NCBI RefSeq assembly: GCF_003334255.1
Contig: NZ_QOWU01000101.1
Length of the DNA stretch: 6,464 nt
Source of the DNA: Escherichia coli
GTDB taxonomy: Bacteria; Pseudomonadota; Gammaproteobacteria; Enterobacterales; Enterobacteriaceae
Reading direction: 5' to 3' (one strand)
Positions 49 to 3,826 of this stretch are shown here, in pieces; within the stretch, counting starts at the first letter, position 1, and each line of letters opens with the position of its first letter. The notes beneath the pieces are model-generated. The model did no database searches. It had not been told where the DNA came from and saw only the letters and a program-made list of their open reading frames with translations. A program made the position numbers and the translations under genes.

Positions 49-106
49 AAAAAGGGTGGCAGAGCAGTCACGGAGTAAAACTGATACCGCCAAACGTCAC
101 CAGAAA
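49..106 (-). ncRNA. dicF: DicF small RNA (ftsZ-targeting sRNA of Qin-type prophages), mature 53 nt at 54-106 plus U-tract at 49-53
   Basis: The reverse complement of 54-106 reads TTTCTGGTGACGTTTGGCGGTATCAGTTTTACTCCGTGACTGCTCTGCCACCC, followed by TTTTT (plus-strand A5 at 49-53). This matches the E. coli DicF sequence as I recall it, with about one mismatch; the match is from memory, not from a search. It lies in the expected orientation, co-directional with the repressor-proximal leftward operon. Confidence 0.8.
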
Positions 107-679: not shown

Positions 680-1093
680 TTATGGCAATTTCTTCAGTAG
701 CTCTCCCGAAAGTTGAGTAGTTTTAATTGTTGTTTTGAAATAATCACTGCTTTCACATTTGAGTGATTTCATGGCAATCCAAATGCGGGCCTCTGTGCCT
801 GCATTTGGTTCCAGTTGCTGTAGACGTTTTGCGTCTTCCAAAAGTAAGGCGATAATGTGTTTCAGCTTCTCATCATTTGCTTGATTCTTGTTTTCAGTCG
901 AATTCTGTCCGCCGAATAGGCGCTTCTCTTCATACAGACCTATAAAGGCACGACGCACGTTACCGGATATAGTATCGATGGTTTCCTTTTCTACAGTACT
1001 CAGGTCAAGAGTCGCCAGTTGAGAGCGAACCACATTAGATGCCATTTCCTGGAATGGTACTGGTAAATCTTTAAATTCCATCGTCAACCTCAT
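680..1093 (-). CDS. Hypothetical 137-aa protein, second gene of the repressor-proximal leftward operon; no family recognised
   Basis: Minus-strand ORF whose ATG (1093-1091) overlaps the TGA of the upstream YdfA-like gene (TGATG), suggesting translational coupling. Alternative start at ATG 1081. The predicted protein is helical and charged. Confidence 0.6.
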   Translation of the reverse strand: MRLTMEFKDLPVPFQEMASNVVRSQLATLDLSTVEKETIDTISGNVRRAFIGLYEEKRLFGGQNSTENKNQANDEKLKHIIALLLEDAKRLQQLEPNAGTEARIWIAMKSLKCESSDYFKTTIKTTQLSGELLKKLP

Positions 1094-1245
1094 CAGTCGG
1101 AGTTTCTTGCTAACCAGCGATGCGCGCCAGCTTCGGTTTTAAACGTTTTACTTTTGGTATACGTCATCGCGGTAAACGTGCCGTCCTGGTTGGGAAACAC
1201 GCCGCATACCAGAGATTCGCTGTTGCCAAGATCGATAGTATCCAT
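1093..1245 (-). CDS. ydfA: YdfA-like small protein (DUF1391 family), 50 aa
   Basis: The internal ATG at 1245 is preceded by GAGGT with a 5-nt spacer. The product MDTIDLGNSESLVCGVFPNQDGTFTAMTYTKSKTFKTEAGAHRWLARNSD matches my recollection of E. coli YdfA, the first gene after dicA in Qin. The 114-aa upstream extension in the ORF track has no SD and starts inside a hairpin. Confidence 0.6.
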   Translation of the reverse strand: MDTIDLGNSESLVCGVFPNQDGTFTAMTYTKSKTFKTEAGAHRWLARNSD

Positions 1246-1430
1246 GTTGACCTCATTTCCCCTTAACGCCGGGGGAGCGGAACAAAAACCTGCTGCGCTG
1301 TTATACAAAGTGTTCCCGCCGTCATGTTCATACGCCTCGGGCTGGCTACTTAACCCCTGACCACTGCCGGGTAACTCGAAGTATTGCCCTGCATTCTGTG
1401 GGGCGGGGTGGGTTGGTATGAAAAGAAGGA

Positions 1431-1467
1431 TACCCATAGGTATTTAAAAAGTAAATACCTATGGGTA
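1431..1467. promoter_or_regulatory. Perfect inverted repeat (15-bp arms, 7-bp spacer) downstream of the repressor gene; candidate OL-type operator overlapping an early-left promoter, possibly also a terminator for the repressor transcript
   Basis: TACCCATAGGTATTT (1431-1445) and AAATACCTATGGGTA (1453-1467) are exact reverse complements. On the minus strand, TTTACC-17 bp-TAAATA fits -35/-10 spacing within and around the repeat. The half-site CCATAGGTA recurs at 1926-1934 at the repressor start. Confidence 0.45.
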
Positions 1468-1509
1468 AATTTTTGCGGTGTCTTAACTGGTGACTAGTTG
1501 TTTGGTGAG

Positions 1510-1929
1510 CTATGATGCGTTTTGTGCTTTCTTTTTACGGATTTCTTCGTAGATCATATTGTAATACTGTTTTTTCTCTTCAAGAGTTTTTAATAATTTA
1601 TCCGCTTCACTTTCTGGCAGTTCGTCTAAGAGATCTAAAAAAATACGTTGTCGTGGCGTTAGAACCCTTGTTTCATAACTGGAGGCTGTGTTCGTTGATG
1701 ATGAAACGATACCATCCATCCATCCCCGGGGTAACCCAAAGGACTCTTCGATAATCTCCACCATATCATCAGCGATCCGTTTTTTTCCCTTTTTCCCCTC
1801 TGGGTACAACATTCTTGATACATAAGAAGGCTCGCGCCCGATCTTTCTGGCCACGTTAACCGCTTTACCATCGCATTTCTCATCACGAATTTTGATGAGT
1901 TGCTGTCGTCTAAATTCATATTTGTCCAT
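1510..1929 (-). CDS. Prophage repressor, 139 aa: CI-type HTH N-terminal domain with a DicA-like C-terminal region
   Basis: Complete ORF, divergent from the Cro-like gene. HTH segment AVNVARKIGREPSYVSRMLYPEG. The C-terminal LTPRQRIFLDLLDELPESEADKLL resembles the DicA C-terminus (LSPKELELLELFNALPESEQ as recalled). The ATG at 1929 sits 6 nt after a TATTAT -10 candidate, consistent with a leaderless mRNA. Confidence 0.85.
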   Translation of the reverse strand: MDKYEFRRQQLIKIRDEKCDGKAVNVARKIGREPSYVSRMLYPEGKKGKKRIADDMVEIIEESFGLPRGWMDGIVSSSTNTASSYETRVLTPRQRIFLDLLDELPESEADKLLKTLEEKKQYYNMIYEEIRKKKAQNAS

Positions 1930-2029
1930 AGGTAAATAATAGATGCGATTACCGCAAGGTAAACAACCTGTGGGTATTGACTTTTGTTTACCTGCGGGTA
2001 TTCTTTGCTGTGTTTACTAAGGAGTAGCT
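1930..2029. promoter_or_regulatory. Divergent promoter/operator region between the repressor and Cro-like genes
   Basis: CCGCAAGGTAAACAA (1952-1966) and the reverse complement of 1985-1999 (CCCGCAGGTAAACAA) form an inverted pair. A rightward TTGACT (1977-1982), 16-bp spacer and TATTCT precede the SD TAAGGAG (2018-2024) and ATG 2030. A leftward TATTAT sits immediately upstream of the repressor ATG. Confidence 0.55.
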
Positions 2030-2311
2030 ATGGAAGAATTAAGAATATTTCTCAATTCTCTTTCGTCAGATGAACAGCGTATGTTTGCATGCGAGTGTGA
2101 TACCAGCATCGGTTATCTAAGAAAAGCATTGAGTAAAGGTCAAGTGTTAGGGGCATCGTTATGTGTCCTTATTGAGCGAGCCAGTAATGGTGAAGTTACA
2201 CGTCAGCAACTAAGGCCTTTTGATTGGATGAATATTTGGCCCGAGCTGGAAGATACCAAAACGTTAACACAACCACTTTCTAGGAGCTTGATTCATGAAA
2301 ATCAAGCATGA
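2030..2311 (+). CDS. Cro-like transcriptional regulator, YdaS family, 93 aa
   Basis: SD TAAGGAG 5 nt upstream of the ATG. Divergent from the repressor. The segment ASLCVLIERASNGEVTRQQLRPFDW resembles Rac YdaS as recalled (CPAIERATRGEVLCEELRPDIDW). Confidence 0.8.
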   Translation: MEELRIFLNSLSSDEQRMFACECDTSIGYLRKALSKGQVLGASLCVLIERASNGEVTRQQLRPFDWMNIWPELEDTKTLTQPLSRSLIHENQA

Positions 2312-2720
2312 ACACATCCGCATGGCGATGAATGTCTGGGCGCATCCGGACGGCGAAAAAGTACCGGCTGCGAAAATTACCAAAGCGTATTTCGAGCTGG
2401 GAATGACGTTCCCGGAACTGTACGACGACAGCCATCCGGAAGCCCTGGCTCGTAATACCCAGAAAATTTTCCGTTGGCTGGATAAAGACACCCCTGATGC
2501 TGTTGAAAAAATTCAGGCTCTGTTACCGGCGATCGAAAAGGCAATGCCGCCTCTGCTGGTGGCCCGTATGCGCAGTCACAGCTCTGAATATTACCGTGAG
2601 ATCGTCGAACGGAGGGATCGGCTGGTGAAAGATGTGGATGATTTTGTCGCAGCGGCGATCGCCTGGGGCACCCTGACTAACAGTGGTGGTCAGCCTGGTA
2701 ATGCTGTTGTCGTGCATTGA
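2295..2720 (+). CDS. ydaT: YdaT-family protein (CII-like regulator, also annotated as toxin YdaT), 141 aa
   Basis: Starts MKIKHEHI and ends VVH, with an internal KIQALLPAIEKA motif, as in Rac YdaT from memory. GGAG lies 8 nt upstream. The start overlaps the end of the Cro-like gene by 17 bp. Confidence 0.8.
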   Translation: MKIKHEHIRMAMNVWAHPDGEKVPAAKITKAYFELGMTFPELYDDSHPEALARNTQKIFRWLDKDTPDAVEKIQALLPAIEKAMPPLLVARMRSHSSEYYREIVERRDRLVKDVDDFVAAAIAWGTLTNSGGQPGNAVVVH

Positions 2721-2788: not shown

Positions 2789-3826
2789 ATGGCTAATGCC
2801 TGGCTCAGATTGTGGCATGACATGCCAAATGATCCCAAATGGCGAACCATTGCCAGGGTCTCAGGACAGCCAATCGCAACAGTGATGGCGGTGTATATCC
2901 ACCTTCTGGTGAGTGCGTCACGAAATGTCACGACATGTCACGGCGTGTCACTACGTGGTCACATTGATGTCACGACGGAAGATTTAGCAAGTGCGCTTGA
3001 TGTGACGGAAGACGTAATTGATTCAATTTTGCATGCAATGCAGGGGCGGGTTCTGGATGGTGACCTTATTTCCGGATGGGAAAAACGTCAGGTGCTGAAA
3101 GAGGACAATGGTAACGTTTCGCAAACGGCAAAATCCCCGGCAGAGCGCAAGAGAGCGCAGCGGGAGCGCGAAAAGCTGCGGAAATATGATGCTGATTGTC
3201 ACGATGAGTCACGACGTGTCACGCATCTGTCACGACAAGTCACGACAGATAAAGATACAGATACAGAATTAAACCCCACACATAACGCGCGCATGCGCGA
3301 GAGTGCTCCAACCGGTGAGTCGCATGGTGCGCCGTTGCAGACAGCCGAACCTGAATACCTGGACGGCCTGAGCGAACCGATCGGGAAATTTTCGATGACT
3401 ACTGTCTGGCAGCCGTCGTCGGATTTTCGACAACGGGCAGCAGTGTGGGGTATGGCTCTGCCTGAGCCGGAATTTACACCTGCTGAGCTTGCCGCATTCC
3501 GGGATTACTGGATGGCGGAGGGGAAGGTTTTCACACAGGTTCAGTGGGAGCAGAAATTTGCCCGCCACGTGCAGCACGTCAGGACACAGGTAAAACCAGT
3601 CAGCAAGGGGGTAAGCCATGCAGCATCAGGTGGCACGGCATCACGGGCAGTTCAGGAAATCCGGGCAGCACGCGAACAGTGGGAACGAGACAACGGATTT
3701 ATCAGCAACGGAAATGGCCTGGAAGCTGTGGGAGCTTATGGGGGAGGTGTATTCGAACCGCTGGACTCAGAAGAACGGGGCCGCACCTTCGAAGCTCTGG
3801 ATTGCCCAGATTGGCACGATGACTGA
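2789..3826 (+). CDS. Phage replication initiator (lambda O-like, iteron-binding replisome organiser)
   Basis: Long ORF immediately upstream of the P-like gene. Two arrays of GTCACG iterons are embedded in its coding sequence, as in lambda O/ori. ATG 2789 is preceded by GAGG; the GTG at 2783 is an alternative start. Confidence 0.8.
   Translation: MANAWLRLWHDMPNDPKWRTIARVSGQPIATVMAVYIHLLVSASRNVTTCHGVSLRGHIDVTTEDLASALDVTEDVIDSILHAMQGRVLDGDLISGWEKRQVLKEDNGNVSQTAKSPAERKRAQREREKLRKYDADCHDESRRVTHLSRQVTTDKDTDTELNPTHNARMRESAPTGESHGAPLQTAEPEYLDGLSEPIGKFSMTTVWQPSSDFRQRAAVWGMALPEPEFTPAELAAFRDYWMAEGKVFTQVQWEQKFARHVQHVRTQVKPVSKGVSHAASGGTASRAVQEIRAAREQWERDNGFISNGNGLEAVGAYGGGVFEPLDSEERGRTFEALDCPDWHDD
2915..2978. 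repeat. Iteron array 1: six direct repeats of (t)GTCACGAc at 10-11 bp spacing
   Basis: GTCAC begins at 2917, 2927, 2937, 2947, 2958 and 2969, i.e. one helical turn apart. Confidence 0.7.
3196..3248. repeat. Iteron array 2: five direct repeats of (t)GTCACGAC at 10-11 bp spacing, followed by an AT-rich segment
   Basis: GTCAC begins at 3198, 3208, 3218, 3229 and 3239. The AT-rich stretch AGATAAAGATACAGATACAGAATTAAA (3247-3273) and the 12-bp palindrome CGCGCATGCGCG (3288-3299) follow. Confidence 0.7.

Follow-up and report, generated by a model that had tools for sequence, protein, structure and literature searches.

The inverted repeat beside a 139-aa repressor gene in a lambda-like Escherichia coli prophage is very probably a left operator region with a predicted leftward promoter

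Results

An inverted repeat at positions 1431-1467 of a 6,464-nt stretch of E. coli DNA (the whole of which we call the window) is very probably the left operator region (OL) of a prophage immunity cassette. On the comparative evidence given below, it would consist of two 12-bp operators bracketing a predicted leftward promoter, PL. A first-pass annotation had proposed that the repeat is an operator for the adjacent repressor at a leftward early promoter and is related to sites at the repressor's own promoter, a prediction that comparison with related loci strongly supports.

Gene organization of the window

The window is the immunity region of an E. coli lambda-like prophage. The stretch 1000-2400 has 100% identity to strain JE86-ST05 and 97.6% to EPEC E2348/69. 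Counting a genome when the matching place spanned at least 80% of window 1000-2400, we found the cassette in at least 822 of the 5,426 complete E. coli genomes, EPEC E2348/69 and O157 strains among them. In E2348/69 the prophage adjoins ompW and contains, in order, int, xis, an exonuclease gene, DUF1482, dicB, small genes, DUF1391 (ydfA-like) and a gene for a 139-aa hypothetical protein, followed by a divergent transcriptional regulator, a YdaT-family protein and the replication genes.

In the window the 139-aa repressor gene lies on the minus strand (1510-1929), is probably leaderless, and encodes a predicted N-terminal helix-turn-helix domain and a DicA-like C-terminal helix. Reading leftward, it is followed by the repeat and then by the ydfA-like gene, DicF, dicB, exo, xis and int, all in leftward orientation. 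The ydfA-like (DUF1391) gene (1096-1248, minus strand) opens this leftward operon, which runs on to DicF and dicB, and the DicF small RNA gene (54-105, minus strand) lies in its downstream part (Rfam RF00039, 70.1 bits with a gathering score of 48). DicF was the only match in an Rfam scan of the whole window, and no family matched at the inverted repeat. We set aside a mechanically called 114-aa open reading frame (1093-1437) that starts within the repeat as an artefactual extension of ydfA. Between the repeat and the ydfA-like gene is the predicted PL leader RNA (1249-1419, minus strand), which begins near A1419, is C-rich and shares 87-98% identity with prophages carrying other repressors. 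This leader is about 170 nt long and untranslated, and its 5' end is very C-rich (CCAACCCACCCCGCCCCAC); it could be a Rho-loading or antitermination element.

To the right of the repressor gene and on the plus strand are a cro/ydaS-like gene (2030-2311), whose 93-aa product is 71% identical to Cro of phage mEp043 and accompanies the same operators there, and a ydaT/cII-like gene (2295-2720). A perfect inverted repeat, TTGATT-CATGAA-AATCAA (2288-2305), lies over the ATG of the ydaT-like gene (2295). It equals the YdaT box of CP-933P and Rac, TTGATT-N6-AATCAA (PMC11879457), and is likely bound by the CII-like YdaT protein. The O-like replication gene contains two clusters of 10-bp-spaced TGTCACG-type direct repeats (2916-2961 and 3197-3253) that are probably origin iterons.

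A 12-bp palindrome occurs on both sides of the repressor gene

A repeat search gave two arms of 16 nt (1431-1446 and 1452-1467) that are 100% complementary and have 5 nt between them; the 15-nt arms and 7-nt spacer described earlier are the same repeat, one pair short. As RNA, the repeat has a predicted folding energy of -22.5 kcal/mol on each strand (z = -7.3 and -5.2), and 200 shuffles gave no fold as stable. Allowing at most one mismatch, the palindrome TACC-N4-GGTA has six matches in the window where 1.19 are expected, a number that none of 200 shuffles reached. Five of the six fall into two clusters, one in the arms of the repeat (1431 and 1456) and the other between the repressor and cro-like genes (1950, 1965 and 1989). 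Centre-to-centre spacing is 25 bp on the left and 25, 15 and 24 bp on the right. Operators of lambda are spaced by 23-24 bp, to which these values are close.

We call the candidate sites in the repeat OL1 (TACCCATAGGTA, 1431-1442) and OL2 (TACCTATGGGTA, 1456-1467). On the right are an OR1-like site (TACCTGCGGGTA, 1989-2000), an OR2-like site (AACCTGTGGGTA, 1965-1976) and an OR3-like site (TACCGCAAGGTA, 1950-1961), none of which the first-pass annotation had listed. The copy that it cited at the repressor promoter is a fourth site over the repressor start (TGTCCATAGGTA, 1925-1936), which has two mismatches, is the weakest, and is absent in relatives from other genera. The shared half-site on which that link was built, CCATAGGTA-WW-TAA, does occur at 1434-1448 and at 1926-1940, over the repressor ATG (1929..1927, minus strand), but a single 9-mer in 6.5 kb is not significant alone.

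Operator centres fit Y-R-Y-R in 28 of 40 sites. Among near-identical cassettes the TACC and GGTA tetrads are almost invariant and the central 4 nt vary. Thus, the recognition unit is best read from these sequences as a 12-bp palindrome, TACC-YRYR-GGTA, with the repeat made of two such operators 25 bp apart and not of one 37-bp palindrome as first described. We rejected a mobile or REP-like repeat because the motif is confined to immunity regions and tracks the repressor domain. The commoner polymorphisms of near-identical cassettes cluster in the operator centres (1435-1438, 1460-1463, 1969-1972 and 1993-1996) and are all transitions; they could mean relaxed constraint or tuning of affinity.

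Predicted promoters share one layout with the operators

A promoter scan called a rightward candidate, PR (TTGACT-16-TATTCT, 1977-2004, plus strand), that would drive the cro-like and ydaT-like genes, and a repressor promoter candidate, PRM (TTTACC-16-TATTAT, 1936-1963, minus strand). At PR, the operator at 1965-1976 abuts the -35 hexamer, and the operator at 1989-2000 overlaps the -10 hexamer and ends in the TA that opens it. The minus-strand reading of the repeat, TACCCATAGGTA - TTTACT - TTTTAAA - TACCTATGGG/TATCCT, has the same layout. Because this layout mirrors that of PR, we placed PL with its -35 hexamer TTTACT at 1455..1450 and its -10 hexamer TATCCT at 1432..1427 on the minus strand, and with a start near A1419. 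The -35 hexamer aligns with the PL of relatives, and the -10 hexamer, whose first TA is the last TA of OL1, is placed by alignment and by analogy with PR. OL1 would then overlap the -10 hexamer with its centre at about -17 from the predicted start, and OL2 would adjoin the -35 hexamer on its upstream side with its centre at about -42. In the window this PL (TTTACT-17-TATCCT) has 8 of the 12 consensus bases, which puts it under the threshold of the scan. The scan did call this register in two Salmonella loci (L095 and L094) and a Yersinia locus (L091), where it has 9 of 12.

The promoter proposed earlier, TTTACC-17-TAAATA, exists as a string on the minus strand (1469..1464 and 1446..1441). We rejected it as PL since its -10 hexamer is not conserved in relatives and that of the alternative register is.

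The OR3-like site overlaps the -35 hexamer of PRM, and the OR2-like site lies between the -35 hexamers of PR and PRM. The repressor ATG is 7 nt past the -10 hexamer of PRM, which implies a leaderless repressor mRNA; paaR2 is a precedent for a leaderless repressor gene (PMC8630535). With its centre at -41.5 from the repressor ATG, taken as the PRM start, the OR2-like site would hold the position of lambda OR2. The PR -35 hexamer TTGACT (1977-1982) reads TTGGTT or TTGGCT in E2348/69 and an O157:H7 strain, and this change may weaken PR in these cryptic copies.

The sites are conserved together with the repressor's DNA-binding domain

We fetched 13 loci from other genera or phages in which the repressor domain is about 50-85% identical. 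These came from phages mEp043 and CharmingMan, Serratia, Yersinia, Salmonella, Pantoea, Klebsiella, Edwardsiella and metagenomes. The OR pattern was found just upstream of the repressor start in 12 of the 13, as two flanking sites 39-40 bp apart with, in most cases, a weaker site between them at 15 bp from the one proximal to the promoter; in a degraded Klebsiella locus (L100) the arrangement was shifted. A downstream OL pair with a spacing of 25-26 bp was present in 11 of the 13, and two loci (L092 and L102) showed no clear OL pair within the fetched sequence. Each pair encloses a TTGACA-like hexamer (tttact, tagaca, ttgatt, ttgacc, ttgaca or tttaca) and ends in a TAnnnT -10 hexamer. The sequence between the two sites varies among relatives, as does its length (13-14 nt), and the -35 hexamer is held inside. 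An N-like gene lies downstream of the pair in mEp043, in the Yersinia locus L091 and in the Klebsiella locus. Eight divergent loci together contained 34 perfect sites in 44 kb, where about 0.65 are expected. A Cro-like protein accompanies the motif across relatives with 71-72% identity.

The DNA-binding domain is found on repressors of different build. Pfam searches assigned the repressor to no family, and comparison with the sequences of solved structures gave no relative. NCBIfam NF007257 (DicA) aligned to residues 86-136 (E 1.9e-5; 24.5 bits with a cut-off of 101), and we excluded membership of the DicA family since the match is below threshold and covers the C-terminal segment only. Searches for homologues showed that residues 1-72 are highly conserved and are fused either to a DicA-like tail (proteins of 135-140 aa) or to several kinds of S24 peptidase domain (221-242 aa). 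These fused forms were found in Salmonella, Edwardsiella, Yersinia, Klebsiella, Pantoea, Serratia and phages mEp043 and CharmingMan. Thus, one operator specificity appears to be common to self-cleaving repressors and repressors that lack a cleavage domain.

An AlphaFold2 model (mean pLDDT 84) has a helical N-terminal domain with helices at residues 3-18, 23-30, 34-40 and 54-63, a disordered linker (78-87) and a long C-terminal helix. The best Foldseek matches, all weak (TM-scores 0.3-0.46), were Rep of phage SPC32H (5d50, E 1.5e-3) and C-protein/XRE regulators. Rep of this Salmonella phage is controlled by an antirepressor. The model is in keeping with a repressor that is dimeric, has a helix-turn-helix and does not cleave itself. 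An antirepressor probably inactivates it, to judge from the analogy of DicA and Rem (PMC10448788).

Prophages with other repressors carry their own motif at the same position

About 3,000 further genomes match the leader from 1250 to about 1420, where the homology ends. We examined four other cassettes, namely Rac racR of K-12, one with a LexA-type repressor, one with another helix-turn-helix repressor, and paaR2-paaA2-parE2. Each has its own repeated motif at both the left and the right regulatory regions, and Rac is without any TACC-N4-GGTA site. In the PaaR2 cassette the same position is occupied by PL933P with its OL operators, which is repressed about 100-fold by PaaR2 and by YdaS (PMC8630535). 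Thus, the motif goes with the repressor, and the place it occupies is that of a PL proven by experiment. In the window and in the four others (L002, L096, L097 and L098), the junction between cassette and leader is within a few nucleotides of the cassette's own leftward -10 hexamer, which argues that the boundary of the module coincides with the PL transcription start. All five cassette types meet the same C-rich leader (CATACCAACCCACCCCGCCCCACAG, minus strand) at one point, at about 1415-1425 of the window.

Alleles of the repeat and alternative readings

We compared the repeat of the window with its alleles in six cassettes from E. coli genomes and then in 78 cassettes from viral contigs. 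The viral-contig scan with a domain alignment gave near-identical cassettes only and was used for allele counts, while diversity came from individual look-ups. The commonest left-operator allele (about 60 of the 78) has the centres CATA and CATG and one mismatch in the stem. Perfect-hairpin alleles are a minority of about 15, comprising that of the window (about 13) and one with the centres CATG and CATG (2). In the window the perfect 16-nt pairing exceeds what two operators need, because the two centres are exact reverse complements and four flanking pairs are added. By definition, two adjacent Y-R-Y-R sites are complementary at 8 positions, and each of the other 4 is so with a probability of about one half. 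The four extra A/T pairs (TTTA/TAAA) are the sole lineage-specific part of the pairing. Thus, the symmetry is mostly a by-product of the operator consensus.

The hairpin could be, or could also be, a Rho-independent terminator that ends the repressor transcript from PRM before the toxic ydfA-DicF-dicB operon, and we regard this as unlikely. A terminator scan called the repeat on either strand, and the 16-bp stem of -22.5 kcal/mol has TCCTTCTTTT after it on the minus strand. The scan gave no other terminator-like site from the repressor stop (1510) to PL, and a GC-rich terminator of its own precedes OL in relatives whose repressor is S24-type or that carry cargo genes (L008, L009, L093, L091 and L096). 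The commonest allele also favors the minus strand, where the RNA has a U.G wobble (-22.2 kcal/mol) and the plus-strand RNA an A.C mismatch (-18.0 kcal/mol). However, the stem is AT-rich, with 5 G-C pairs of 16, and in the tail that follows it (UCCUUCUUUU) the proximal part, UCCUUC, is a poor U-tract. The preference of the first-pass annotation for an operator over a pure terminator was reasonable. The nearest relatives with the same gene order, the Salmonella loci L095 and L094, have the operator pair with neither a T-rich tail nor another terminator, so a terminator is not a conserved requirement. A strand-specific covariation test (A-U to G.U to G-C on the minus strand) rested on few independent changes, and rare stem variants that break the pairing on either strand, roughly 6 events versus 3, gave no clear bias. 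The pairing is, moreover, largely explained by the operator consensus. A version of this reading that we consider improbable has the two operators of this cassette molded into one 16-bp hairpin, T-rich tail included, that would also be the sole terminator for the repressor transcript. If so, the same 37 bp would act as protein-bound DNA that silences PL and as an RNA structure that stops read-through from PRM.

It is very doubtful that the 37 bp form a single long palindromic operator with half-sites of about 15 bp. Symmetry between the arms is perfect over 16 nt, but each arm is itself palindromic and occurs singly in OR at other spacings (15, 24 and 25 bp). Relatives keep two 12-bp sites with the -35 hexamer inside while the sequence and length between them differ, and most alleles of this cassette are not perfectly symmetric. 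Least credible of all is a repeat with no function of its own, either a palindrome due to chance or a scar or hot spot of recombination where the exchangeable immunity module ends. Homology with heteroimmune prophages does stop about 10 bp to the left of the repeat. Against this, the motif is far above chance and conserved across genera with the DNA-binding domain, and the point of junction with the leader is one and the same in all five cassette types, with or without such a repeat, which indicates that the junction tracks the transcription start and not the palindrome.

Discussion

The motif, its enrichment, its geometry and its conservation with the repressor's DNA-binding domain lead us to propose that the repeat is an operator pair. 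From these we infer binding, repression, cooperativity and a transcription start as follows. OL1 and OL2 would flank the -35 hexamer and overlap the -10 hexamer of a leftward sigma-70 promoter that starts near 1419. The adjacent 139-aa repressor would, in a lysogen, bind OL1 and OL2 as dimers, with probable cooperativity, and keep RNA polymerase off the promoter. Occupancy of OL would silence the ydfA-DicF-dicB-exo-xis-int operon, and after induction the Cro-like protein would be expected on the same sites. The operators at 1989, 1965 and 1950 would organize PR and PRM as in lambda. The long hairpin would be mostly a by-product of two neighboring palindromic sites with Y-R-Y-R centres.

This design is that of ordinary lambda, a textbook architecture, and there is little in it that is conceptually new. 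We did not find the operator sequence described, and literature searches by protein accession and for phage mEp043 gave no study of the repressor, the motif or the operators. A widespread immunity type without an earlier description thus gains a candidate operator, TACC-YRYR-GGTA, and an assigned PL, PR and PRM. The binding domain is modular and unannotated, and one immunity specificity is probably common to SOS-inducible phages and to repressors without a self-cleavage domain. For work on DicF and DicB in pathogenic E. coli, our results point to the repressor and sites that would control this copy of the operon.

The arrangement resembles lambda in having palindromic operators 24-25 bp apart, centre to centre, that overlap the -35 and -10 regions of PL and PR, an OR2-like site at -41.5 relative to the start of PRM, a leaderless repressor mRNA and a divergent cro. 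In contrast, the lambda operator is 17 bp and the one here is 12 bp with a 4-bp centre that looks uncontacted; lambda has three OL sites rather than two, its OL lies after rexAB and a terminator rather than about 40 bp past the repressor gene, and the repressor here is without the S24 self-cleavage domain.

The cryptic prophage CP-933P, with PL933P, OL1-3 and a PaaR2-YdaS-YdaT switch (PMC8630535), has its leftward promoter at the homologous position, from the end of the repressor operon to the shared leader upstream of DUF1391/ydfA. It also has ydaS-like and ydaT-like genes as rightward neighbors, a leaderless repressor gene beside about 100 bp of intergenic sequence, repeated operators in both OL and OR, and a leftward promoter that copies the design of PR. 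However, its repressor has an unrelated DNA-binding domain and its operators are GTTTAGTAA-type repeats, not TACC-YRYR-GGTA. It has three OL sites and, from the repressor gene to OL, a toxin-antitoxin pair, whereas here two sites directly follow the repressor gene, and PL933P is experimentally proven whereas PL here is predicted.

The dicBp promoter of the Qin prophage, with DicA and DicC (PMC10448788, PMC3441716), has under its control an operon of the type found here (ydfA...dicF-dicB). DicA is also a short repressor that is not cleavable. Residues 86-136 of the repressor described here resemble the C-terminal segment of DicA, but the N-terminal DNA-binding domain of DicA is another one and the Qin operators therefore differ.

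Phages mEp043 (PV340537) and CharmingMan differ in that their repressors carry an S24 peptidase domain and a separate GC-rich terminator precedes OL; in mEp043, PL drives the N gene rather than ydfA-dicB. They have the same DNA-binding domain (65% identity over 86 aa) and the same Cro (71%), together with the same operator motif, the same OR spacing (25 and 15 bp) and the same OL pair design.
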